Virus record (IMG/VR): IMGVR_UViG_3300037190_000626
Span: 13,960-77,959 of that record
DNA length: 64,000 bases
Strand: one strand, 5' to 3'
DNA from: a virus
In this document: piece after piece, positions 1 through 18,744 of the stretch
How the letters are laid out: each line of letters starts with the position of its first letter
Numbering within the stretch: position 1 is the stretch's first letter
Made by a program: the position numbers and the translations under genes
The notes under the pieces: generated by a model
Seen by the model: only the letters and a program-made list of their open reading frames with translations
Database searches by the model: none
What the model was told of the DNA's origin: nothing

Positions 1-1635
1 GGAAGACAAGGTCGTCCGGCGCAAGATTATGTGTTCAAGACTTACTCACGCCGTAATGCTCAGCACGCCTCGGTCGGATTTGCAGGTATAAACTCAGTTC
101 TTGATTATGATAGTGCCCACGTAATTTGCATGAGTGACGCACTAGCAATGTTGCGTATTCAAGTTCGCAATTTTAATACTTCGATGCAGCCGCTGCCTGT
201 CATTGCATGGCGTGCAGATGAGAAATATCGTCTTTCTCATAACTGGCACTTATTTAACGGTAAGAATCTAATCTTCTGGGAATGGGCTCCCAGTGCTGCT
301 GTACTGTACCAGTGCATGATTTCAGACGGTTCTTTGACTCTGAACGTAGGGCCTAGAAAATATGACTATCGTGGAATATCGCATTGGATTCGTGATTTTA
401 AGACGATGCACGACATCGAGCGAATGGTGCTTTCGGAGGCAAAGGAATGGAAGGCTGCCCTGTATGAGTGGTCGAAGGGTGTCGCAACAACAGACGGTCA
501 AATATCCGAACTGCTGGCTGCTTGCTCTAGATTAGACTATGGGCTTTTTAATGAGGTACAAGACGCCCTCAAACTTCCGAAGGATCGGTCTCAGCATTAC
601 ACACATACAACTACGATAGGTCGAGCGTCTTATACAGAACGTTCCGGGGTATGGTATCGCAGTAACAAAGAGAAACCCATATTGCCGGGCCATGTGGAAG
701 TGCAACAGATAGTTACTCGGGGAAAGAGGTTGCCTGAGTACATCGGTGAAGTTTGTATTCGGGATGACCGTATCCCGTTCCGTATATCCGGTAAAAGTCA
801 GCGATCGTTAAATAACAGTTTGTGGGCTTTGATCGAGGCAAACGGATATTTTTGTGAGAAAACGCTTCCTGCTAATTACGCAGGACTTATGCAGATAGCG
901 CTCGCGTTTCGGTTACCGCAGATTGTAAGAGGTAAAGATCGTCTTGGGTGGGACGGGGAAGGTTTTCAATTTGAGAACTTGCGTATCTCCGGTGGCGCGT
1001 ACAAAACGACGCAGTACTTGCTACCCCAAGACGTAGGAGGGCCGCCCGGCTGTCAATATCGCTGGCGTCCTGAGGTGATCAGTAACTTACGAGCCGCTAC
1101 GGGGCATGAGTCCGTGTGGGCGTGGAGTATTGTATTTAGTTTCGGCGCTCAGCTTGTAGCTTCTATGACAGGTCGAACTATCCCGTGGATTGCCTTCGAC
1201 CATCCCACTCACTGCGATACAGCCTTTATTGAAATACTGGATCGTCTGGACGTTTCTTTGACGGGTGAGTTTTGGGATCACTATTGGCCCGTGGTGTCGA
1301 CAGTTACACCTAACAGGCGTCAAAAATTTAGGGCTACAATTATTAACGAGGGGGAAACACCTAAGACAAATAGAGGGGTTTACCGTGTGGTCTCCCCCGA
1401 AGTAAACGCAGATTTTTCACCTAAAAATGTGCCCTTGTCCTTCAAGACCGTACTTCCTGATTTTTTGAAGTGGTCAACGGACAACGTAACTGCTTCTACT
1501 TTTTCAGACGAAATACACTGGCAGCTTCAGGTGTTAGCTCTGTTTAAAGCGTGGGCTAAGGACAGAAAAATAACTGGGCTGTACCCCGTGTTTAAAGAGG
1601 CAGCCCAGTGTCTTACATGTCTTCCCAGTCCTTAA
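1..1635 (+). CDS. Large hypothetical protein, 5'-truncated by the window edge
   Basis: Frame is open from base 1 into the 534-aa ORF. No motif confidently recognised; RLGWDGEGF is only weakly reminiscent of DUF927-type domains. Confidence 0.6.
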   Translation, partial: GRQGRPAQDYVFKTYSRRNAQHASVGFAGINSVLDYDSAHVICMSDALAMLRIQVRNFNTSMQPLPVIAWRADEKYRLSHNWHLFNGKNLIFWEWAPSAAVLYQCMISDGSLTLNVGPRKYDYRGISHWIRDFKTMHDIERMVLSEAKEWKAALYEWSKGVATTDGQISELLAACSRLDYGLFNEVQDALKLPKDRSQHYTHTTTIGRASYTERSGVWYRSNKEKPILPGHVEVQQIVTRGKRLPEYIGEVCIRDDRIPFRISGKSQRSLNNSLWALIEANGYFCEKTLPANYAGLMQIALAFRLPQIVRGKDRLGWDGEGFQFENLRISGGAYKTTQYLLPQDVGGPPGCQYRWRPEVISNLRAATGHESVWAWSIVFSFGAQLVASMTGRTIPWIAFDHPTHCDTAFIEILDRLDVSLTGEFWDHYWPVVSTVTPNRRQKFRATIINEGETPKTNRGVYRVVSPEVNADFSPKNVPLSFKTVLPDFLKWSTDNVTASTFSDEIHWQLQVLALFKAWAKDRKITGLYPVFKEAAQCLTCLPSP

Positions 1636-3595
1636 GGCTGCCCGGGGTAAGAGCGGAACCCAGCTCAGGTCCAACTTCCACGTCTTCGTACTGTGACAGA
1701 TCAGGCCATCTGCCGGTCATATGACATAACATCATTGTTCCCATATTGACGGCTTGCGCAAAATCGTCGGGACCTGCTGGATCTCTTAGGATCTTGTAGC
1801 TATCACGTCCGAATGCGCTTTCGGTTTTATCCTCGATTAGGTTGAGGAAATCGTGTAGCAGACCTTTTTCTCCGGACCCCTTATAGTCGTATTGGAACGT
1901 CCGGATAACTCCTGATTTAATAAACTGGCACGTGTAGTTTAATGACCGGGCTTTATCCATAGTAAAGTGATCCCGGGGGTGTAGATCTGTGGCGGGTTTG
2001 AAGTTGAGGACGTTTCCTCTCGCTGTTCCGACGTACGCAATAGGGATAATATTCTGTTGCGGCAGTCCCGCCTGACTCATGACAGTTTCACGGATGGTTC
2101 CTGCTCCCGTGTAATCATGCACTAAGTGTGAGCACTTGAAGTGATTCATGATACCTAGAATAATCTTAGCCTCCCGGACATGCGCGTGAGGATGCAGGCT
2201 TCGATACCCATAGAGAACATCTATTTTCCCGTCCGATGAGTAGCCCATGACGGCAATGGACGTGTAAGACTGGTAGGCCATATCGGATTTACCTTTACTG
2301 ACACCTCCTCCTCCCCAATCCACCGAACATACGCGGTAGTTATATTCGTCAATGTGCTTAACGGCGTCTTCTAGTTCTCTAGGCCACGGAAGTCTTGCGG
2401 CTTTTTTGAGGTCCGTAATGGTGACGAGTTTACTGCCGGAGTCGTAGGATTCACCGCAGACTTCGTTCATGAAGACATTGACAGGTGTATTGCCTTTACC
2501 TTGTTGCTTACCGACTAACACTTCCCATTTCTCTGCGTCGGCGTAATGCATCGGCATGATGATTTGCGGCACGTGATAACCTGCGAAGGACCAGCGTTTT
2601 TCTGGGTACCTGTGTACCCATCTACCTGTTCCTCCTTGATAGGGTGGTCTAGGGTTTATTGGTTTTCTACACTTAGCACACACTACGCCCGGGCAGTTCT
2701 CAGATATATCCTCGTGGTGAGGGCCAATCATCTTAACGAGGTCGTACTCTATTGAAGGGATATTCCAGTAAGAGCAATGAGGGCATTTGACCATCCATTC
2801 GGCCATTGAGCTGTCTAGCCACAATGTTTCGATTGTATTGTCAAGCGTCTTCGGAGTACCCGCATACTGGAGAAGACCCCAGTCACGAGATGCTGAAATG
2901 GTTTCATGAATAACGGGCAAGAAGGAGATGTCCATGTCCTGTACTTCGTCGATAACGTTTTTGTCGGCGGAGATACCGCGAGTACGCTCGGCGTCCATCG
3001 AGGCGAATGAGAAGATCATTTGCGATCGGTTTTTAAAACTACGCTGTAGTACAGAGTTAATTGTGGTGGTTCCTGAGAAGAGCTTCATCACAGGAGAAGT
3101 TTCAATAAAAGGACGCACGTAGTTCTGGGAGAAACGGCGAATCATTTCAAAGAGGGGAGTAATGTAGAGGGTGCTGAAATAGGGAATACAGTTACTAAAT
3201 AGAACACCCTGAGCTGCAAGTGAAGTAGATTTTGAAACCTGACGTCCGGTTTTCAGAAGAGTCTTACGGGGCATTCGTGTTCTAAAAAACGGTGAGAAGG
3301 GGAAGTGATCGTGTAAGTGATAAGGTTTTCCCCGAATTTGTAGCAGTAACGGAAGCAGTGGTTTCAGGGTAAGATGCCCTGTCTTTTTCATTAGATGGCT
3401 GGCAGCCAGAAGTCGTTTACTAACTTCGTCTTCGTGGCCTGTCAGCCGGATATCTTTTAGCAAGTCGGAGGACATCAAGGGACCGATATCAATCATCCCT
3501 TCTCTGTCTTCTTGCTGTATAACGTCGCGGGCCGTTCGTCGCCCCGGTTTACTTTGTTGATCTTCAAGATCGGAAGGAGTTGATGTATGTTTCAT
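1613..3595 (-). CDS. terL: Terminase large subunit (GpA-like)
   Basis: Walker A-like KTGRQVSKST, Walker B NVIDEVQD, coupling motif AGTPKT, CPHC/CAKC zinc insert, C-terminal nuclease region SVDWGG...DDFAQA. Start moved to ATG at 3595. Confidence 0.85.
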   Translation of the reverse strand: MKHTSTPSDLEDQQSKPGRRTARDVIQQEDREGMIDIGPLMSSDLLKDIRLTGHEDEVSKRLLAASHLMKKTGHLTLKPLLPLLLQIRGKPYHLHDHFPFSPFFRTRMPRKTLLKTGRQVSKSTSLAAQGVLFSNCIPYFSTLYITPLFEMIRRFSQNYVRPFIETSPVMKLFSGTTTINSVLQRSFKNRSQMIFSFASMDAERTRGISADKNVIDEVQDMDISFLPVIHETISASRDWGLLQYAGTPKTLDNTIETLWLDSSMAEWMVKCPHCSYWNIPSIEYDLVKMIGPHHEDISENCPGVVCAKCRKPINPRPPYQGGTGRWVHRYPEKRWSFAGYHVPQIIMPMHYADAEKWEVLVGKQQGKGNTPVNVFMNEVCGESYDSGSKLVTITDLKKAARLPWPRELEDAVKHIDEYNYRVCSVDWGGGGVSKGKSDMAYQSYTSIAVMGYSSDGKIDVLYGYRSLHPHAHVREAKIILGIMNHFKCSHLVHDYTGAGTIRETVMSQAGLPQQNIIPIAYVGTARGNVLNFKPATDLHPRDHFTMDKARSLNYTCQFIKSGVIRTFQYDYKGSGEKGLLHDFLNLIEDKTESAFGRDSYKILRDPAGPDDFAQAVNMGTMMLCHMTGRWPDLSQYEDVEVGPELGSALTPGSLKDWEDM

Positions 3596-4084
3596 ATAAT
3601 TGTGACACTTAATAAAAGTGGGAGGTGTATTCGTGATGTTTTCGCGTACAATAAACTTTCGCAAGTATAATTTCGTCTCTAAAGCATAACGTAGATAGGA
3701 GGAGTCATGCCATCTCGAAGCCCTTTTGCGTTCCAACGCAGAAAACAGCTCAGGTCACTTAACTGGCCCGCTTCAACTTTTTCGCCGGATGAACTGTTAG
3801 TTCATAAATATCCTTCAGGTAAGACGCTACAAAAACTTGTGGCTGCCGAGGGGGATTCACCGCCGTTACGTGCGAAGCTTGTCGAGTGGACACCTCCTGA
3901 TTCGGAGGAGTAAACACCATGGGAGATTTACTAAAAACATTCTCCACCATATTTGCAATCGCGGTAATATCGTGTGTAATTGTGGCTGGCGGTTTCCCCA
4001 TCTTAATCTTTGCGATTTTGGGGTATGCCGCCGGAATGTATTTTATAGATGATAAATTGAATAAATGAGAAAAAACGATAACGA

Positions 4085-4884: not shown

Positions 4885-5398
4885 TTGGGACCTTCTCATA
4901 ATTGGCGACGGCTCAGGCAGCAATTGGAATTACCAAAGCGGTTGGGCCTCTGTTTCGATAGAGAAAGCGACCTTGGAGAGACGTGTTTGGTTCGGGGCGA
5001 TGAACTGTGGGACAGTTAATTTCTCGGAAATGATGGCTTACTTGCAGCCGCTTAATTGGTACGTTGCACAAGAGTTGTCACGACGAAGTAACCGGGGAAA
5101 AGTGCGTTTCCGTAATGTGCATATAATTACAGACAGTAAATACTGTACGGATATGGGGGAAAGAAAGAATCTTACCCCTAATAAAAATGGCTCTCTGTGG
5201 CGTATCTTTGACGATTTCCAACGTCATGGTTTGCTGCTACACTGGCACTGGATTCCACGCGCTAGTGTGGGATTAAATGTGTACGTAGATAAGCTGAGCA
5301 AGGAAGCTCGCTTAACGATTAAAAACTGTCAGGCACAAGAGCGAATAGAAGATTCAGGATTCGATGATTCTCGCACGGTGTATGACTTCAATCCTTAG
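4805..5398 (+). CDS. Ribonuclease HI-like protein
   Basis: IIGDGSG...TVNFSEMMA...IITDSKY...WHWIPR...NVYVDKLSK matches the RNase H D-E-D-D layout. Confidence 0.8.
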   Translation: MNKSKQNSEVSETLEELLLRLQIQPADWDLLIIGDGSGSNWNYQSGWASVSIEKATLERRVWFGAMNCGTVNFSEMMAYLQPLNWYVAQELSRRSNRGKVRFRNVHIITDSKYCTDMGERKNLTPNKNGSLWRIFDDFQRHGLLLHWHWIPRASVGLNVYVDKLSKEARLTIKNCQAQERIEDSGFDDSRTVYDFNP

Positions 5399-5408
5399 GA
5401 CGTGCGGA

Positions 5409-5996
5409 ATGAACCAGTGGTGGCAAATGTGGAATAGCTATTTCACGCCTGATGAGTGCAAAGAGATAATTTCTCTAGGCGCTGACTTGGGAAGTCGTGA
5501 GGGCACGATAGGCCACGGCAGTGGTAACAGTGTCAACAGTAAAATGCGACGATCAAAAGTCGGCTGGTTTGATCGAGGTGCTGAAAAATACCAGTGGTTA
5601 TTTAGGCGGCTTGAGAACTCTTTTCAGTTTGCCAATGTAAACGCCTTTAATTTTGAGCTGACGTACTTTCGTGAGATACAGTTCACAGAGTATGACGCGG
5701 ATTATGAAGGCAAGTACGACTGGCACGAGGATTGTACTTGGTGTATGAATCACCCGACCCGTAGGAAGCTGAGCATATGCGTTCAGTTGAGTAATTCTAG
5801 TGATTACGTAGGGGGCGACTTAGAGGTTGATGCTTCGCAGGTAGGCGGAGACGGTCAAGTTCCGGACGCTAAGAAGATACGAGAACGGGGTACGACTTTG
5901 GTGTTTCCGTCTTTTTTGAGGCACCGTGTGACTCCCGTGACGTCAGGAAAACGTTATTCGCTAGTGACGTGGTATGAAGGACCACCGTTTCGATAA
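5409..5996 (+). CDS. 2OG-Fe(II) oxygenase (PKHD-type)
   Basis: YDWHED (HxD), RKLSICVQLS, YVGGDL, FPSFLRHRVTPVTSGKRYSLVTW. Confidence 0.9.
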   Translation: MNQWWQMWNSYFTPDECKEIISLGADLGSREGTIGHGSGNSVNSKMRRSKVGWFDRGAEKYQWLFRRLENSFQFANVNAFNFELTYFREIQFTEYDADYEGKYDWHEDCTWCMNHPTRRKLSICVQLSNSSDYVGGDLEVDASQVGGDGQVPDAKKIRERGTTLVFPSFLRHRVTPVTSGKRYSLVTWYEGPPFR

Positions 5997-9787: not shown

Positions 9788-10429
9788 GTGGACACGGGAG
9801 TTATTAAAGGCTTCCGCGTAAACACACACCGGAGAATCCCCGATTGGGAAATTCGAAGGTACCTTAAGCAGCATGGAATGCCAGCACACTTCTTACTGGA
9901 ACCCCCGGAGCCAAACGAGATACTCACCACCGGCCAGATGGCTGCTGTGATGGGTTGCAGTGTTACGGTCGTTAAAAACCTGCTTAACGCAGGAAAACTG
10001 CGAAGCTGGAGAATAAAGAAAGATCGTCGAATATATGCGGCAGATCTTCTTGAGTATTTTCAAGAGCAGCAGATGACGGGAGCTTTGGCTAATCTTGAAA
10101 TACATTTAAACGGAGGAGGAAATATGAGTGAAGATAGAACATTAACAATTAGCAAACATGAAGTCGTGATTGACCGAATGTTTGCAGAAGATACGTGGGA
10201 GTTGGCATTTGGAGACGGTGCGTGGACAAATCAGCACACAGACGAGGATGTCTACCAAAAGCTAAAAGAGTACGAGCAAAAAGCTCTGGCATGGGACACC
10301 ATGTACGATGGACTCTTACCTCCTGACGGCAATGATGCCGACGATACAGAAGAGAACTACGAGCTAAGGGAAAAGATGGACAAACTCATAGCGACTTTGT
10401 TGTTCAACGGAATTGCGAACGGAGACTAA
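9788..10429 (+). CDS. Tandem excisionase-like HTH protein fused to an acidic domain
   Basis: LTTGQMAAVMGCSVTVVKNLLNAGKLRSWRIKKDRRI. A first HTH extends upstream of the GTG in the same frame, and there is an internal RBS plus ATG at 10124. Confidence 0.65.
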   Translation: MDTGVIKGFRVNTHRRIPDWEIRRYLKQHGMPAHFLLEPPEPNEILTTGQMAAVMGCSVTVVKNLLNAGKLRSWRIKKDRRIYAADLLEYFQEQQMTGALANLEIHLNGGGNMSEDRTLTISKHEVVIDRMFAEDTWELAFGDGAWTNQHTDEDVYQKLKEYEQKALAWDTMYDGLLPPDGNDADDTEENYELREKMDKLIATLLFNGIANGD

Positions 10430-10720
10430 GTGAATAAAAATCTATTAAAAATCGATCAGGTCGCGGAAATGCTCGCAACTCAACCTAAGACCGTCAAGAG
10501 CTGGACCAGCAAAGGATTACTGGGTGCCGTCAAATTTGGTCGGACCATTCGTTATCGACCTGAGGATGTGCAACATTTCATCGACAAGAAACTAGCGCGA
10601 CATATTGCAGCTTACATGAATCAAGCGTGGGAGCATCGTAAATATTATACTGGTCAGCATTCAATGGCAGACATAATACTAGAGGCTCTCGGAGCCTACG
10701 AAAGAGAGGAGAATAAGTAA
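10430..10720 (+). CDS. Excisionase-like HTH protein
   Basis: LLKIDQVAEMLATQPKTVKSWTSKGLLGAVKFGRTIRY. Confidence 0.8.
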   Translation: MNKNLLKIDQVAEMLATQPKTVKSWTSKGLLGAVKFGRTIRYRPEDVQHFIDKKLARHIAAYMNQAWEHRKYYTGQHSMADIILEALGAYEREENK

Positions 10721-11283
10721 TGGGTAACAGTCAGATATACGAGATCCCCGGGTTTGTCAGCAGTTCCACTTGTGGCGAGATCGTGGCGTGGCTCAAAAAT
10801 AGGAAAGAGTACGAACCAGAAAACGAAGGTAACGCCCACTTCGACGGGAGAACTGTACCTTTCAACAGAATACCTGATTTGCACATAAAGCAAATGGTGG
10901 GTGCTTTTCGTTTTGACATAACATCTAAGGTCCGGGGGTTATTTGAGGGAACGTTATATCCTGACTACACCGATCTGGTTTATTGGCCAGACGGTATGGA
11001 CATGGATGTACACGCAGATGCTGCTTGGCTGGACGGGACACCTAACTATTGTGCTTACCGAAACGTATCAGGAGTCACTTATCTAAACGATGACTACGAG
11101 GGCGGGGAAACTTATTTCCCGGCCCTTGAGTACGAGGTTAAGCCGGAGAAAGGCAAAGTAGTTTTATTCCCGTCCGATCTGCAACATAGACATGGTGTCA
11201 GGGAGGTAAAGGGAGAGAGGTATACTATGCCGATATGGTTTACTAAAGATATATCGCATCTAGAAGTGGAGGTAGGACCGTGA
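10720..11283 (+). CDS. 2OG-Fe(II) oxygenase (prolyl-4-hydroxylase-like)
   Basis: MDVHAD (HxD), YLNDDYEGGETYFP, HRHGVREVKGERYT. Confidence 0.9.
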   Translation: MGNSQIYEIPGFVSSSTCGEIVAWLKNRKEYEPENEGNAHFDGRTVPFNRIPDLHIKQMVGAFRFDITSKVRGLFEGTLYPDYTDLVYWPDGMDMDVHADAAWLDGTPNYCAYRNVSGVTYLNDDYEGGETYFPALEYEVKPEKGKVVLFPSDLQHRHGVREVKGERYTMPIWFTKDISHLEVEVGP

Positions 11284-12998: not shown

Positions 12999-13027
12999 GT
13001 GAGTAGTGTTGTCAAGGAGGACTATCT

Positions 13028-13288
13028 ATGAAGTACATTCGAACGCAGTTTAGTGTGAACGGAGACGACAGGCTCGTAGCGCAGGAAATACGCGAGACGA
13101 AGAAGGAAACGATGGGCCAGCAAACAAAGGCGGATATCAACAGGGACGTACGGATCGCCCTGTATCGTAAGCGTTACGAGGAGGGACGAGACTTGATGAC
13201 AGGAAAGCCTATTCCCCCGGAAGATCGTGACGATATTATTTACATTAGCGAAATGAGAAGGAAAAGCGAAAATGGTCGACCCAACTGA
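13028..13288 (+). CDS. Hypothetical protein
   Basis: RBS AAGGAGG; RIALYRKRYEEGRDL motif. Confidence 0.55.
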   Translation: MKYIRTQFSVNGDDRLVAQEIRETKKETMGQQTKADINRDVRIALYRKRYEEGRDLMTGKPIPPEDRDDIIYISEMRRKSENGRPN

Positions 13289-13538
13289 AACCTTCCGCAG
13301 AGCGGAAGTTGCTAGAATTAACACAGAAGTAGAGAGTTCAGACAAGGATACTGAACGAGTACGATTGGAAGAAAAACACGGGCAAGTGTGGGATACCACA
13401 GAACTTCAGCAGGATTTTGAAGTGCACGGTTTTGGGGCTCCTTACATTAACGTGACACGTAAGGAAGATAATGCCAAAGGGTCGCTGGAGTTCCAGCATG
13501 CCCCGAGGTTTTATTACGGCTTCCAGTCACACCCGTAA
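13272..13538 (+). CDS. Phage hypothetical protein
   Basis: VWDTTELQQDFEVHGFGAPY...KGSLEFQHAPRFYY. Confidence 0.6.
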   Translation: MVDPTETFRRAEVARINTEVESSDKDTERVRLEEKHGQVWDTTELQQDFEVHGFGAPYINVTRKEDNAKGSLEFQHAPRFYYGFQSHP

Positions 13539-13573
13539 ATACTGGAATTTATTAGAAAGGATTCGAAAACCAG

Positions 13574-13882
13574 ATGGTAGAACGATTTGGGCCTAGCGTT
13601 AGGAGAACACGACGGCCCCCTGACCCTGAGTGGTTAAAGTTTATGTCCACAGACGAGAAAGAGGCTATGCGGTTAGAGGAGTGGATGCTGACTAGTTTAG
13701 CAGACACCGGCCTATCCGTACGTGCTGTCAATTGTCTGGAAGGAAAAGGTATTTTAACCGTGAGTCAGTTATCTCAGCAAACCAATGACGATTTGTTGGG
13801 TATCGTAAACTTTGGGGTACAAACATTGGAACAATGTAAAAGACTTCTGATGAACATAGGAGTTCCCCACAGTCTAAAGTAA
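13574..13882 (+). CDS. Stand-alone RNA polymerase alpha subunit C-terminal domain protein
   Basis: LADTGLSVRAVNCLEGKGILTVSQL...LLGIVNFGVQTLEQC matches the RpoA alpha-CTD consensus LSVRxxNCL...NFGxKSLxE. Confidence 0.85.
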   Translation: MVERFGPSVRRTRRPPDPEWLKFMSTDEKEAMRLEEWMLTSLADTGLSVRAVNCLEGKGILTVSQLSQQTNDDLLGIVNFGVQTLEQCKRLLMNIGVPHSLK

Positions 13883-13904
13883 GAGAAAATTTGTTTAGCA
13901 GATT

Positions 13905-13936
13905 AAGCCTAGGGTGTGTTGCCCTAGGCTTTTTTT
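13905..13936 (+). terminator. Rho-independent terminator
   Basis: AAGCCTAGGG-TGTGTTG-CCCTAGGCTT followed by a T run. Confidence 0.75.
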
Positions 13937-13965
13937 ATGCACATTTGAGACAAGGAAACGAAAAC

Positions 13966-14730
13966 ATGGCTACAGTTACGAAGACTAGCGCAAAGAAGCC
14001 TGCGGCTAACGACCCTTTCGCTAAGACGCGAATTGAGATTCCCGAAGTGAACATGGATATCTTCAAGTGTCGCCTTATTGGCGAGACCCCGTTGGTTATT
14101 CATGCGATGGGTGAAAAGAAGCGTAAGGAAATGCGCGATTTGATGGGCCCCAAGACGGCGGCCTCTAAGGTGCGACCCCCAAAGGATCAGGCGGGTGAGT
14201 ACTTTGACGCAATGTATATTTTGAACAATCAGATGGACAAGGACGGTAAACGCCCTAACCCACATCACAACGATCAGGAATACAGCTACGAAGGTATCTT
14301 CGTTCCGCTGGCCTTTGAAGACGCTACTGCGGTTCATGGTGTGCGTGCTTCCGGGTTCCGGCTCGGTATGGTTCGTGCCGCTAAGAGCTGCGGTGCTGTG
14401 ATGACGGACACTCGCTGTAACATGCGAGTTAGAAGTCCGTTTGGCTCGTTCGTCCCGTTGAGCTTTGAGACGGTTGTCTCCCGGGAAGACCCCGTGAAGT
14501 TGCAGGGCAACAAGACTGACCTGCGTTACCGCCCTGAGTACACGGGCTGGTCAGTTGACATCGAGATTGAGCACATGTCGGACATCATCGGACCAGAGCA
14601 GCTGATTCAGTTGCTGCGTATTTCTGGTCGTACGGTTGGTGTCGGCGAATGGCGTAATGAACGTGGCGGCGAGTTCGGCGCGTTCGATGTGGATCTGGAC
14701 AGCGTCGAGCTGGAAAAGAAAACTCTGTAA
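13966..14730 (+). CDS. RAMP/Cas7-like RNA-binding protein (candidate array-associated effector, Vipr-like)
   Basis: N-terminal strand CRLIGETPLVIH, GVRASGFRLGM helix motif, YRPEYTGWSVDIEIEH, and C-terminal glycine-rich loop GRTVGVGEWRNERGGEFGAFDV. Start moved to ATG 13966, downstream of the terminator and an AAGGA RBS. Confidence 0.75.
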   Translation: MATVTKTSAKKPAANDPFAKTRIEIPEVNMDIFKCRLIGETPLVIHAMGEKKRKEMRDLMGPKTAASKVRPPKDQAGEYFDAMYILNNQMDKDGKRPNPHHNDQEYSYEGIFVPLAFEDATAVHGVRASGFRLGMVRAAKSCGAVMTDTRCNMRVRSPFGSFVPLSFETVVSREDPVKLQGNKTDLRYRPEYTGWSVDIEIEHMSDIIGPEQLIQLLRISGRTVGVGEWRNERGGEFGAFDVDLDSVELEKKTL

Positions 14731-14912
14731 GTAAAGGGGTAAACTATGGAACAACAAGATCACTGGCAAGACAGTATACGCATCTTGTTCGCTTGCCCTT
14801 GGCATAAAAAGATGAGGGCGTGCCAATTGCTCTGCTTGCTTTTTGTAGTGGAGTGTCGGCTTGGTTTTTATGCTTGGAGCAGAAAACTATAACTCACGTT
14901 GAAAATGGTTGT

Positions 14913-14970
14913 CCGGGGGCAGTGGTGTACTAAGTCTTAGACTAAGTCCGAAGCTGCCCCCGGTTTTTAT
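14913..14970 (+). terminator. GC-rich stem-loop with T tail (terminator, attenuator or small structured RNA)
   Basis: CCGGGGGCAG (14913-14922) pairs with CTGCCCCCGG (14954-14963), followed by TTTTTAT. The 31-nt loop is long for a simple terminator. Confidence 0.5.
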
Positions 14971-14988
14971 CTAGAAAGAAGGTAAATT

Positions 14989-15531
14989 ATGAGTAGTGGT
15001 TACGATGTAACTGTTGAATTTAGTGCCAAGCCGACTCGTCCTCTTAGCAATAAGGTGGCTGAAGAGGTTGGTCCTGAGATTCACGCATTGATGCAGAAGA
15101 ACGAGGGGGACGAGCTTACCCCGCATGAGTACTTGGATTGGGTTAAGGCAAACCCAAACAGTAAGAGTTACAGTCAGTTTGAGTGGGAAGATACAATTGC
15201 TGCGAGAAAGTGGCGAGTTCATCAAGCTCGAAATATCATCAATTCGATTGATATTAAGGTGATTGACGAACGCGGCGACGCGGTGAGCGTTCCTGCGTTC
15301 ATTCATATTACGAGGGCAGACTCGGGTGAGGATGCTCGTCAGTTGTATACTTCTTACGAAAACGTTCTGAACGACGAGGAAAGCTCTTCACAGGTGGTAG
15401 CGAGAGCTTGCCGTGATTTCCTGTCGTGGCGTCGTCGTTACCTGCTGCTCCGGGGTAAGCTGCCACTGGCAGACATTTACGATGCGACGGACGTTCTGGC
15501 TCAAGAGCTGGAAGCACCGGAAGAAGATTAA
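14989..15531 (+). CDS. Phage protein, partner of the RAMP-like gene
   Basis: LTPHEYLDWVKANPNS...FEWEDTIAARKWRVHQARNIINSI motif. Lies between the RAMP-like gene and the array. Confidence 0.7.
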   Translation: MSSGYDVTVEFSAKPTRPLSNKVAEEVGPEIHALMQKNEGDELTPHEYLDWVKANPNSKSYSQFEWEDTIAARKWRVHQARNIINSIDIKVIDERGDAVSVPAFIHITRADSGEDARQLYTSYENVLNDEESSSQVVARACRDFLSWRRRYLLLRGKLPLADIYDATDVLAQELEAPEED

Positions 15532-15609
15532 TTTGGGAGCGAATAGTTAGTTTGGAAATCTCGTCAAACAGCGTCGTGGGGACGTAACGCTATTCGTGTG
15601 ACATGGCAT

Positions 15610-16353
15610 GGCAGTCATGGCGAGGTGTGACATGGTGAGCTGGGGCTTGTTAAGGTCTGGCGGGGTTAGGTCAGGTAAGGCAGTCTTGGCAGGGTAAGGT
15701 GTGTTAAGGCACTGCGAGGTGGGCCACGGTTAGGCGAGGAATGGCAGTCATGGTTAGGTTTAGCGAGGCGGGGAGAGGTGCGGCAGGGTGCGGCTGGGCA
15801 GTCATGGCATGGTGCGGTCGGTACCGGCGGGGTCAGGAGGGGTAAGGCTCGGAATGGCAGTCAAGGTGAGGTTAGGCATGGTCTGGAACGTTATGCGCTG
15901 GTTTGGAGTGGTAAGGCAGTCGTGGCGGGGTGGGGCCGGTCTGGGATAGGTCCGGTTGGGTGAGGCAGTCGAGGCGGGGTCTGGTAAGTTGCGTTAAGGC
16001 GGGGAAAGGTGGGGTGGGTTACGGCAGTCAAGGCTAGGTGTGGTGTAGTGTGTCGAGGCGGCGAAAGGTCGGGCAGGGCAGTCATGGTGAGGCGGGGTGT
16101 TGCTGGGTGTGTCTGGTTCGGGGCTGGCGAGGCAGTCATGGCAGGGGGTGGTGGGTAGCGGCGGGGTCAGGAGGGGCAAGGCAGTCATGGTGAGGTGTGA
16201 CACGATGAGGTGTGACATGGTTCGGCAGTCGAGGTCGGGTCTGGTTCGATCTGGCAAGCCGAGGCGTGGTGCGTTGAGGCAGGCATGGAATGGGTGGCAC
16301 GGCGCGGTCAGACCACGGTGAGTAATGGCAAGGCTAGGCAGCCATGGCGCGGA
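15610..16353 (+). repeat. GGCAGTC-delimited GGY/NN periodic array, block 1 (13 complete units; putative non-coding guide RNA array)
   Basis: Delimiters at 15610, 15679, 15743, 15797, 15856, 15915, 15964, 16023, 16077, 16131, 16180, 16224, 16278 (GGCAGGC) and 16337 (GGCAGCC). Spacings are 69,64,54,59,59,49,59,54,54,49,44,54,59, all equal to 9+5n. Confidence 0.92.
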
Positions 16354-16367
16354 TATTAACTTTACCC

Positions 16368-16739
16368 CTACTTTTCGCAGCTGCTGCAACGAGCACTCCA
16401 TCTTGATCTCATCTGAGAGCGAACCGGACGTTCTTGTGCCATAACACGTAGGGCCCGAAACGGCATAGTTGTAACTCTTACTGTGGTTCTCACAGTGGCT
16501 CTAACAAGCGTTCGAACTGGTTGTGCGTCACGGAGCCTCTTTGCGGCATTACGTAAGGGAGATCGGCAACTGCGGCCCTCTGCTGCGACGACAGGTTGCT
16601 TATCGGCTTCTTGCATACTGACAGCACTAACGTATGACACAGTTGACGCTTTGGATGCGTGATCACAATCTTGTGCGTTAACAGAGCTGAAAGAGAGAAC
16701 ACTTACGACAACGGCTGAAGCTAAACACTTTTTAAACAT
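16368..16739 (-). CDS. Secreted small protein between the two array blocks
   Basis: Signal peptide MFKKCLASAVVVSVLSFSSVNA and Arg-rich QPVR/RPVR segments. Confidence 0.65.
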   Translation of the reverse strand: MFKKCLASAVVVSVLSFSSVNAQDCDHASKASTVSYVSAVSMQEADKQPVVAAEGRSCRSPLRNAAKRLRDAQPVRTLVRATVRTTVRVTTMPFRALRVMAQERPVRSQMRSRWSARCSSCEK

Positions 16740-16872
16740 GTCTTTTCCTGTTATTTAAGTGGTAATACGTAATGCTCCTACAAGGGAGCGACAAAATTGT
16801 AAATCTTTAATTGCGACACGGCATCCCCAAACCAGAGGTATTTTTAAAAATACTCCAAAAAAGAAGTGACGA

Positions 16873-17058
16873 GGCAGTCATGGTTAGGTGCGTACTGGTG
16901 AGGTGGGTTCAGGTCAGGCAGGGTGTGGTATGGCAGTCAAGGCGAGGTATGGTCGGGTGAGACATGGTCGGGCTGGGCGAGGCGAGGAATGGCAGTCAGG
17001 GCAAGGTCTGGTTGGGTTTGATTCGGAGGGGCGAGGAGTGGCAGTCGTGGTGCGGTTG
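16873..17058 (+). repeat. GGCAGTC-delimited GGY/NN periodic array, block 2 (3 complete units plus 1 truncated)
   Basis: Delimiters at 16873, 16932, 16991 and 17040; spacings 59, 59, 49. Confidence 0.9.
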
Positions 17059-17062
17059 CTAG

Positions 17063-17428
17063 ACTTAAGCTTTTGACTTAAGCTTGTGAGTCCTTACGTT
17101 AAGTAATATATAAAACAAGGAGGAGTGATGAGACCTGAGTCATTTAGGTCAAAACCATTTATTGATTGTTCTAAGTGGGAATGTTGGAATTGCGGTGCAA
17201 TTCACCATTACATACCTGCTGATTGTCAAAAATGTCGGGTGAAATTTGTCTCCCGACCTCACTGGGGTGTTCCCGAGAAAAATTCGGAGATCTCTGAAGA
17301 GAAGAAAACATCAATATCTTTTGATGAGTTAATATCTGATTTACTGAAAGGACCAGAAGAAGAGTAACTGCTTGATGCCCTGTATATATTATCTATAGGA
17401 CTCACAAGCTTAAGTTAAAAGCTTAAGT
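17063..17428. repeat. 32-bp inverted repeat pair flanking a small ORF
   Basis: ACTTAAGCTTTTGACTTAAGCTTGTGAGTCCT (17063-17094) and AGGACTCACAAGCTTAAGTTAAAAGCTTAAGT (17397-17428), 1 mismatch. Confidence 0.88.
17125..17367 (+). CDS. Small zinc-ribbon protein
   Basis: CWNC...CQKC; RBS AAGGAGG. Confidence 0.6.
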   Translation: MMRPESFRSKPFIDCSKWECWNCGAIHHYIPADCQKCRVKFVSRPHWGVPEKNSEISEEKKTSISFDELISDLLKGPEEE

Positions 17429-17453
17429 AACTCTAAATTCTGGGATTGACGCT

Positions 17454-17843
17454 ATGGGAAAAAGTTACAGGTGGGCAGATGTGGCGGGACAGTTTGTTAC
17501 AGAACTGTATGCCCGGGATGGTGAGCTATATGACGCATATTCCGATAAGAATCTGGATGTGCAGATTGAAGCGGCACTGGAGCATGGTGAGAGCTACGAG
17601 CTTACGATTGAGTTTCGTAGCAGCGGGTACTATGACCCCGGAGTCCTATCAGGGCCCCCGGAGAAGTGTTACCCGCCTGAAGGTGATGATGATCGTGAAA
17701 TGGAAGGCGTGGCATTATCCGCAGAAAACAACAAGGAAGTAGAGCTGACGCATGCTGAACAGGAAGAAATGTTTGAGATTTACAGGGGCGGGATAGAGGA
17801 TGTAGAACTTGAAACGCAAGACGACGACGGGGGTAGATACTAA
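17454..17843 (+). CDS. Acidic phage hypothetical protein
   Basis: YYDPGVLSGPPEKCYPPEG motif recalled from phage ORFs. Confidence 0.6.
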   Translation: MGKSYRWADVAGQFVTELYARDGELYDAYSDKNLDVQIEAALEHGESYELTIEFRSSGYYDPGVLSGPPEKCYPPEGDDDREMEGVALSAENNKEVELTHAEQEEMFEIYRGGIEDVELETQDDDGGRY

Positions 17844-17844
17844 T

Positions 17845-18744
17845 ATGCCTCCGGATTTTGCGATAACGATGACGACCTCTAAACCCTCCTTCCAACGCAT
17901 TGCGGTGGCTAAGGCGTTACAGGAATTAGCGCCTAAGGTTTATATAAGCTCTACTAAAAACAGGGATATGGTTCCCTTTATTCGGCAAGTGCAGAAACGG
18001 TGGAGACATTTCACTGTGACGCTCAAGGAAGCTGATTACGCACCGTTTGACACTAAGAAGTTCGGGTACGCACGTAATTGTGTTCCTGTGCTGGTATCTA
18101 ACCGGTGTGATGCCGGGGAAATTGTACCGTGTCAAATTCCGGTGTGTCCGTTTTGCTGGAGCAGACGTGTAGTAATAAAGGCGTGTAAGTTGCTTGAGGG
18201 GCACAAAAACGACATTGCGAATTGGAAGTGGGGGCACGTGGATTTTGGGGGTGCCTTTAATGACGTGTCGGCATCTGTGAGAGCGGCACATCGGGCTATA
18301 CCTGACTACAGCGGGGTGATTGCGTACACGTACTTGTGGGGCAATTCAGATTCTGAGACTCCCAGCTTTAGTGGCCGGGTAAAGTATCTTGCTGTCGGTG
18401 AGGCTGACCATCCTATCTCGCGAGGGGTACATGAAGTACTTAGTCCGTTCACTAAGGCCAAAGATGCCCCGCGAGCAATTGGACAGGCCTTTGCTTATCC
18501 GGTGCATGTTATGCCGCCGGTAGCCTCTAAGGAGCAGGTAGATGCGAGTGTGTATTGGTGGAACCGATTACGGAAGGCAAGGTTTCGTGCGTTTAGAACG
18601 AGCGGTATTTTTTATCGTATGACGAAGCCAGCAGCGGGAAAGAGTAAGAGCAAGGAGGCCAAGTTTAATGATATTTACAAGAGACTTGAAGTACTTGAAA
18701 ACAAGTTAGGTGTAGCGCCTAACGGGAGGAAAGAAAATGAGTGA
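17845..18744 (+). CDS. Hypothetical protein with Cys motif
   Basis: About 300-aa ORF with CQIPVCPFCW. Confidence 0.55.
   Translation: MPPDFAITMTTSKPSFQRIAVAKALQELAPKVYISSTKNRDMVPFIRQVQKRWRHFTVTLKEADYAPFDTKKFGYARNCVPVLVSNRCDAGEIVPCQIPVCPFCWSRRVVIKACKLLEGHKNDIANWKWGHVDFGGAFNDVSASVRAAHRAIPDYSGVIAYTYLWGNSDSETPSFSGRVKYLAVGEADHPISRGVHEVLSPFTKAKDAPRAIGQAFAYPVHVMPPVASKEQVDASVYWWNRLRKARFRAFRTSGIFYRMTKPAAGKSKSKEAKFNDIYKRLEVLENKLGVAPNGRKENE

Follow-up and report, generated by a model that had tools for sequence, protein, structure and literature searches.

A Cas7-like gene, a partner gene, and a pentameric array on one strand of a phage genome

The window that we analyzed, a stretch of 64,000 nucleotides (nt), corresponds to bases 13960-77959 of the IMG/VR record IMGVR_UViG_3300037190_000626, a phage genome that consists of a single 77,959-nt contig and is classed as a virus record. 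Between positions 13966 and 17058 of this window lie a 254-aa open reading frame (ORF), a 180-aa ORF, and two G-rich, strand-biased blocks, all of which are present with the coordinates and composition given by an initial annotation made from the letters alone. That annotation had seen in the locus a candidate RNA-guided system of the phage, in which a RAMP/Cas7-like protein and its partner accompany a non-CRISPR array of GGY/NN units, and it had likened the locus to the VIPR (Viral Interference Programmable Repeat) type. This comparison was right, as we found homology to the Vipr protein of phage SUSP1, retention of the residues that contact GGY, and linkage to arrays on the same strand. VIPR systems are composed, in the text of the preprint that describes them, of a lone RAMP named Vipr, a gene called vap that is accessory to it, and vrRNAs that each contain 9-16 YNNGG repeats, and they are mostly found in phages (bioRxiv 10.64898/2026.04.26.720920). 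We are highly confident that the locus is a VIPR system, functional or recently functional, with the mode of action of those already published. The locus is a genuine representative of a type of system first described in 2026 preprints, and no new kind. Its principal features are as follows.

13966..14730, + strand: vipr gene, encoding a 254-aa Cas7-like RAMP; ATG start (the mechanical ORF begins at TTG 13891)
14989..15531, + strand: vap-like accessory gene, whose 180-aa product combines a winged-helix-like core (residues ~20-128) with C-terminal helices
15532..15609, + strand: leader, from the vap stop codon to the first delimiter; its last ~14 nt are already in pentamer register, and it shows no promoter consensus
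15610..16230, + strand: array block 1, with 12 exact GGCAGTC delimiters and 11 complete putative guides of 8-13 YNNGG pentamers (15616-16225)
16231..16345, + strand: decayed tail of block 1, with the altered delimiters GGCAAGC (16253), GGCAGGC (16278), and GGCAGCC (16337)
16866..17058, + strand: array block 2, with 4 GGCAGTC delimiters, 3 complete putative guides (16879-17041), and a truncated last unit

The 254-aa protein is a Vipr homolog

The 254-aa ORF at 13966-14730, which includes GVGEWRNERGGEFGAF, encodes a protein with detectable similarity to SUSP1 Vipr by three routes. It matches the PDB entry 36pp_D, "SUSP1 Vipr protein," over the thumb and the G-loop (phmmer E-value, hereafter E, of 1.4e-4), a pairwise comparison with the SUSP1 gene product from GenBank gives E 2e-9, and its C-terminal 85 aa retrieve phiSUSP1 and SUSP2 at E 1e-3 with tblastn. 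The G-loop of the protein is GRTVGVGEWRNERGGEFG, and its thumb hairpin, which spans residues ~169-193, contains the motif LRYRP. As for the fold, the predicted model aligns to Csm3/Cas7 RAMPs, the nearest solved structures being Csm3, Cmr4, and Cas7-11. Both the RAMP/Cas7-like assignment and the structural comparison with Cas7, Csm3, and Cmr4 that had been suggested for it thus came out as foreseen.

The residues that hold the GGY of the guide in SUSP1 Vipr are, according to the text of the structural preprint, H17, R138, D177, W178, and R179 (bioRxiv 10.64898/2026.04.26.720927). Their counterparts in our alignment to SUSP1 are H46, R189, E228 (a D-to-E change), W229, and R230, of which R189 and R230 are invariant among 34 homologs, while W229 is at least 90% conserved. 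The family is large, with 2182 cluster representatives at E <= 1e-3, and its members include "hypothetical proteins" of Gordonia, Mycobacterium, and Pseudomonas phages. A Pfam scan returned no family for Vipr and none for Vap, and matches in the ESM Atlas were only to unnamed viral clusters. Both vipr and the partner gene are under purifying selection: the differences listed for them in metagenome contigs are synonymous in 10 out of 14 cases for vipr and in 15 out of 18 for the partner gene, 83 further differences having fallen outside these two counts.

Arrays and a partner gene accompany Vipr across related loci

For comparison, we used 89 related loci, 80 from IMG/VR and 9 from metagenomes, that encode Vipr relatives. 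In 77 of them, vipr is followed on its own strand, after a median gap of 120 nt, by a gene for a homolog of the 180-aa protein, and because this homolog recurs next to vipr so widely, we identify the 180-aa gene, from this sequence linkage, as the accessory gene of this Vipr clade. The partner role that it had been given initially therefore holds. Searching PDB with a Vap profile yielded nothing below E 0.27.

The arrays are linked to Vipr as well. Period-5 GG arrays are found in 41 of the 89 loci, where they form 69 regions. Every one of these is on the gene strand; the opposite strand has no such region, and neither do shuffled sequences. Closely spaced GGCAG[GT]C words occur in 45 loci, and 148 of the 195 spacings on the gene strand are 4 modulo 5; no such spacing is seen on the other strand. 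One or the other sign is present in 59/89 loci, always on the gene strand, which is the co-occurrence that was expected for the neighborhoods of homologs, and among the 30 loci that show neither sign, 8 are metagenome contigs too short to leave much, if any, space past the genes. The array regions lie downstream of the partner gene (30), between the genes (16), downstream of vipr in loci without a partner match (15), or upstream of vipr (8), at a median distance of 35-480 nt from the gene pair. The delimiter and the rule that its spacing equals 5k-1 are kept in relatives whose Vipr is only ~30% identical.

This linkage bears on whether the G-rich blocks could be a DNA-level element, such as a G-quadruplex-prone repeat, a recombination hot spot, or an origin, unrelated to the neighboring genes. 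The 48% share of G on one strand, the recurrence of GG at 5-nt intervals, and the heavy rearrangement between strains would suit such an element. However, arrays accompany Vipr homologs in the 59 loci above, always on the gene strand and beside the gene pair, period-5 arrays are found nowhere else in this genome, and the YNNGG grammar is that of the vrRNAs shown experimentally in the text of bioRxiv 10.64898/2026.04.26.720920. We consider it extremely improbable that the blocks are such an element, and we treat them below as a guide array belonging to the VIPR system.

The array follows a pentameric grammar

The G-rich blocks extend over ~15596-16345 and 16866-17058, and in both of them G makes up 48% of the letters and C 13-15%. 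Between 15610 and 17046, the + strand contains 16 copies of GGCAGTC, of which block 1 holds 12 and block 2 the other 4. In the 64-kb window the word occurs 22 times, against 6.1 +/- 2.6 expected, a number reached in 0 of 100 shuffles. The 14 close spacings between copies (69, 64, 54, 59, 59, 49, 59, 54, 54, 49, 44 and 59, 59, 49) all equal 5k-1. Read as YNNGG pentamers, each unit begins with the final C of GGCAGTC, extends over 8-13 pentamers, and is followed by CAGT, so that the register slips by 1 base per boundary. The 14 complete units comprise 145 pentamers in total, where a VIPR array needs at least 4 repeat units, and the five phases within them are G (96%), G (82%), C+T (86%), N, and N.

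The two variable positions, NN, contain all 16 dinucleotides, and the first and last NN, beside the delimiter, are semi-conserved. The 14 putative guides are mutually unrelated, since the longest run that any of them have in common is 4 NN, a length reached by 27 of 200 shuffles. None of 20 shuffled versions of the window produced period-5 GGY runs, and in the whole 77,959-nt genome they are confined to this locus, on the + strand. The array is not coding because + strand ORFs within it are at most 74 aa and 5 is no coding period. Tandem Repeats Finder recovers it as fragments only, with a period of 10, because NN is variable. An Rfam scan of 13000-18000 revealed no ribozyme or other RNA family, bar one row at chance level.

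The description of the array as non-CRISPR, with no cas1 or cas2 nearby, stands. Among 30 neighboring ORFs, PADLOC gave no matches to Cas1, Cas2, or Cas effector models, the sole Cas-labeled row being a generic 2OG-oxygenase "associated" domain. There are no CRISPR-type repeats, and within 5000-27000 the only repeat families of more than two copies are those of the array itself. The layout is consistent instead with a known VIPR arrangement. In staggered arrays, as given in the Results and the fig. S18 legend of the preprint, adjacent vrRNAs overlap by 1 nt (bioRxiv 10.64898/2026.04.26.720920), and such 1-nt overlaps would give the 5k-1 spacing seen here. Judged by the legend of that figure, our locus fits a staggered vrRNA array.

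The sequence immediately 3' of the array has features of its own. A 13-nt tandem repeat (17062-17089, 2.2 copies, 93% match) directly follows the last guide unit, and just beyond it an 80-aa ORF (17125-17367, + strand) encodes a zinc-ribbon-like protein with two CxxC pairs, for which Pfam returned weak rows (E 0.035-0.14).

Possible turnover of guides between strains at the delimiter

Eleven runs, all of them DNA runs from marine or seawater metagenomes, contain part of the locus. Contigs from four of these were compared with it, at >=85% likeness; these are short assemblies, and repeats can mislead assemblers. One contig omits exactly unit 1, passing from 15609 to 15679 (69 nt) with 7 shared letters at the joint. 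In contigs of two runs, 17038 connects back to 15855, so that one delimiter is fused to another, and 8 letters are shared at this joint. In other contigs, 192 nt or 889 nt are exchanged for 30-34 other pentamer-like letters, and loose contig ends behind delimiters carry different guides. These joints hint that the delimiter is where guides are dropped, exchanged, or rearranged as whole cassettes.

The same joints could be read differently. The locus would still be a VIPR locus, but GGCAGTC would not be a guide boundary: the array would give rise to a few long RNAs or be processed at other sites, and the slip of one base would be incidental to growth of the array by unequal recombination. In the metagenome contigs, the delimiter is where units are deleted and reordered, the joints having 7-8 letters in common, and recombination could therefore account for its conservation; staggered arrays are not among the layouts confirmed by small RNA sequencing in the text of bioRxiv 10.64898/2026.04.26.720920. 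On the other hand, the delimiter and the 5k-1 rule are kept (148/195 spacings) in relatives with a ~30% identical Vipr, the NN pairs beside the delimiter are semi-conserved, as a functional boundary would show, and the units, which contain 9-14 pentamers when CAGTC is counted as the last, are within the 9-16 repeats per vrRNA stated in that preprint. We therefore find it unlikely that the delimiter is not a boundary. The initial proposal that each GGCAGTC-bounded unit is one guide is upheld in part: the 5k-1 rule and the staggered legend agree with it, and each unit may well correspond to one guide.

Evidence weighed against the identification, and the search for targets

A number of observations count against the interpretation of the locus as a working VIPR system. 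Imperfect pentamers are common, the canonical ones numbering 5-10 of the 8-13 in each guide. By sequence, the partner protein is unrelated to SUSP1 vap1 (hhalign probability 0.15%), and its winged-helix likeness is middling only. A terminator-like hairpin separates vipr from the rest of the locus, and no promoter was recognized when a consensus was looked for at the locus. The layouts that small RNA sequencing confirmed, in the text of bioRxiv 10.64898/2026.04.26.720920, are the ribozyme-interspersed and the single-vrRNA ones, not the staggered one. Of the 11 runs that contain DNA of the locus, none is on record as RNA.

Nor did the guides point to a target. We used the target rule as it appears in the text of two preprints, with GGY reduced to one wildcard, both strands searched, shuffled guides as the null, and natural targets expected to agree at 80% or more of NN (bioRxiv 10.64898/2026.04.26.720920; 10.64898/2026.10.15.759431). 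In the phage's own 78-kb genome, the best guide matches cover 65-81% of NN, which does not exceed the level of 100 shuffled guides, and in the 89 related loci (0.70 Mb) no guide match rises above 30 shuffles. Six guide stretches, from five guides, were searched as exact patterns in IMG/VR with 0 matches each; such collection scans are exact only, and targets at 80-95% NN match would escape them. The lack of self-targets above the shuffled-guide level in the phage's own genome speaks for a VIPR system, as the same is reported for the published ones in the text of bioRxiv 10.64898/2026.04.26.720920. One guide pattern has a single match in genome_contigs (596 Gb), in Streptomyces, which is approximately the chance expectation for 20 fixed bases; with about one match expected by chance, we set it aside as a target.

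The composition of NN offers a weak hint. It fits best to codon positions 1-2 of the sense strand, with -3.874 bits per NN versus -4.058 to -4.268 for the five other coding phases, a value barely above that of plain genome dinucleotides (-3.913). This signal, the failure to find a DNA target in the phage's own genome, the 89 loci, or the exact-pattern scans, and the fact that the nearest solved folds are the RNA-targeting Csm3, Cmr4, and Cas7-11 would be in line with a Vipr relative that acts on RNA, like the Csm3/Cmr4 backbones of type III CRISPR, rather than on double-stranded DNA (dsDNA). However, the only relatives that have been studied experimentally bind dsDNA, according to the text of two preprints (bioRxiv 10.64898/2026.04.26.720920; 10.64898/2026.04.26.720927), the GGY-contact residues are kept, and the composition signal hardly exceeds that of the genome dinucleotides. 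Moreover, the structure library that was searched contains no Vipr structure, and the ranking of CRISPR RAMPs is for this reason uninformative on the substrate. An RNA substrate is, in our judgment, very unlikely.

We thus retain the identification as a VIPR system, for which the observed homology, fold, contact residues, array grammar, linkage across relatives, and selection all argue, and which would act on dsDNA as the published ones do.

Intergenic spacer, inserted segments, and genomic setting

Four further features lie in or next to the locus.

13905..13931, + strand: terminator-like hairpin followed by a T run, with a 12-pair stem and a T-rich tail
14721..14904, + strand: strain-variable 184-nt segment, with a 48-aa Cys-rich, hydrophobic ORF (14746-14892)
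14913..14969, + strand: GC-rich hairpin predicted by folding, located between the two genes, with an 11-bp stem and a U run after it
16346..16865, - strand: inserted cassette interrupting the array, with an ORF (16368-16739) of 123 aa that has a signal-peptide-like N terminus and an Arg-rich body

The spacer between vipr and the partner gene is 258 nt long and structured (whole-spacer fold z -2.68). The hairpin predicted at 14913..14969 is a possible attenuator or terminator, and the relative L085 exhibits a different hairpin and T run at the same place between the two genes. Speculatively, the hairpin may govern how much of the abundant Vipr is made relative to the other products of the locus. 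A tracrRNA-like role for the hairpin (14913-14963), which has CUGCC in common with the complement of the delimiter, was considered and rejected, since the two would pair over no more than 5 bp and CUGCC is missing from the hairpin of L085. The 184-nt segment is probably outside the system: contigs in three of the four runs examined join 14720 to 14905 with 21 other letters between, and relatives have only 35-85 nt where it sits. The cassette at 16346..16865 is outside the system as well. Its ORF has one homolog, 65% identical, on another contig, and the cassette is present in contigs of the metagenome runs X1-X3, while some contigs of X2 and X4 join across it.

Elsewhere, the window encodes a large terminase, a DNA polymerase, helicases, a UvsX-like recombinase, and an SbcC-like protein, and no tRNA genes were found in it. 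In a greedy longest-ORF parse, 93 of its 103 ORFs are on the + strand, versus the large terminase gene (1613-3736), which is on the - strand. Directly upstream of vipr, a 102-aa ORF (13574-13882, + strand) matches PF03118, the C-terminal domain of the bacterial RNA polymerase alpha subunit (alpha-CTD), with E 2.7e-13. This alpha-CTD-like ORF is kept at the same place, with 86-100% identity, in five metagenome contigs of close relatives; no cellular relatives of the gene were found. The hairpin at 13905..13931 ends the alpha-CTD-like gene and separates the vipr gene from it. A phage look-alike of the alpha-CTD that adjoins a transcription-silencing system may merit attention. Two separate 2OG-Fe(II) oxygenase-like genes are found on the + strand at 5364-5996 and 10720-11283 (phrog_61, E 1.8e-30 and 1.5e-23), the latter of which also matches the PADLOC model "2OG, CAS-associated," taken here as a generic domain match. 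Two adjoining ORFs (9788-10720, + strand) show weak matches to the PADLOC model mad1, with E 3.9e-5 and 3.2e-7.

A model for guide production and action

In the published model, as set out in the text of the preprints, Vipr occupies the guide with a single protomer per repeat and keeps GGY sequestered, while NN pairs with dsDNA as NNx, with a 1-base skip, and transcription is silenced (bioRxiv 10.64898/2026.04.26.720920; 10.64898/2026.04.26.720927; 10.64898/2026.10.15.759431). By analogy with these systems, we infer the following for the marine phage locus. The array would be transcribed on the gene strand, and Vipr protomers would assemble along the transcript, one per YNNGG pentamer, each gripping GGY and leaving the two N bases exposed. 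At GGCAGTC, CAGT takes the place of a pentamer and the register slips by 1 base; because of this slip, the filament would stop at the delimiter, and the next guide would start on the shared C. The product would be at least 14 guides of 8-13 pentamers each (45-70 nt). Each filament of Vipr and guide would then bind dsDNA, reading it as NNxNNx... with one base skipped per step, and would silence transcription there, with the winged-helix-like partner protein presumably assisting at the DNA. Competing phages or satellites within the same marine host are the likely targets.

A more specific proposal, which we put forward only tentatively and hold to be rather doubtful, is that guides in this widespread Vipr clade may do without a structured tail, ribozyme, or dedicated nuclease. 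In that case, the CAGK slip in GGCAG[GT]C might by itself end and start filaments, the protein acting as a 5-nt ruler, and the same 7-nt word might provide the homology for deletion, swapping, and reordering of guides between co-circulating phages. If true, this would amount to a turnover of guide repertoires that is free of Cas1/Cas2. The precise loss of unit 1, the joint between two delimiters, and the different guides behind delimiters in metagenome contigs are hints in this direction.

Comparison with known systems

The locus is of value as a clear natural case of the staggered layout, with at least 14 distinct guides and an exact 7-nt delimiter, in a marine phage that has not been cultured. 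Knowledge of this kind of system is unchanged by it, and the related loci put numbers on the grammar, with 148 of 195 delimiter spacings equal to 5k-1. It is also a convenient template for how tailless guides are measured and cut and for how repertoires change. The suggestion that the version with this delimiter might be undescribed does not hold for a new kind of system, as the staggered layout is named in a preprint and GGCAG[GT]C occurs in 45 of the 89 relatives. In the text of that preprint, figures and data files aside, the word GGCAG does not appear (bioRxiv 10.64898/2026.04.26.720920).

Compared with the Cas7-family backbones of class 1 CRISPR (Csm3, Cmr4, type VII Cas7, and Cas7-11), Vipr of this phage is 9-16% identical. 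Class 1 CRISPR systems have cas1, cas2, cas10, cas6, and a repeat-spacer array, none of which is found near this locus. Likewise, the guide period is 5 nt here, with 2 bases read, while class 1 CRISPR uses a contiguous spacer with a flipped base at every sixth position. With no repeat-spacer array, adaptation genes, or multisubunit effector, the locus is not a class 1 CRISPR-Cas system.

Likeness is found on the side of the VIPR systems. The type II system of Escherichia phage SUSP1 (Vipr YP_009199429.1, vap1, and four vrRNAs; PDB 36pp) has a homologous Vipr, with the G-loop GVGDWR in place of GVGEWR, and the YRP thumb and the GxxPxxxHA first strand are common to both proteins. In both loci, vipr is followed by an accessory gene, and the GGY/NN guides are on the same strand. 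The two differ in that SUSP1 Vipr has 195 aa, versus 254 aa here, with detectable identity over 66 C-terminal residues only, and in that vap1 is unrelated to our 180-aa protein by profile comparison. Furthermore, the vrRNAs of SUSP1 are separate units with a long, structured 3' hairpin tail, whereas the guides here abut, with a 4-nt slip between them. Having neither vap1 nor a structured tail between units, the locus falls outside type II VIPR (the SUSP1/P. fulva clade), one of the seven VIPR types, I-VII. With staggered VIPR arrays, as these are described in the text of the preprint, it has in common the lone Vipr RAMP, the vap gene, the YNNGG repeats in a phage, and the sharing of one base between neighboring units, which appears here as the 5k-1 spacing.

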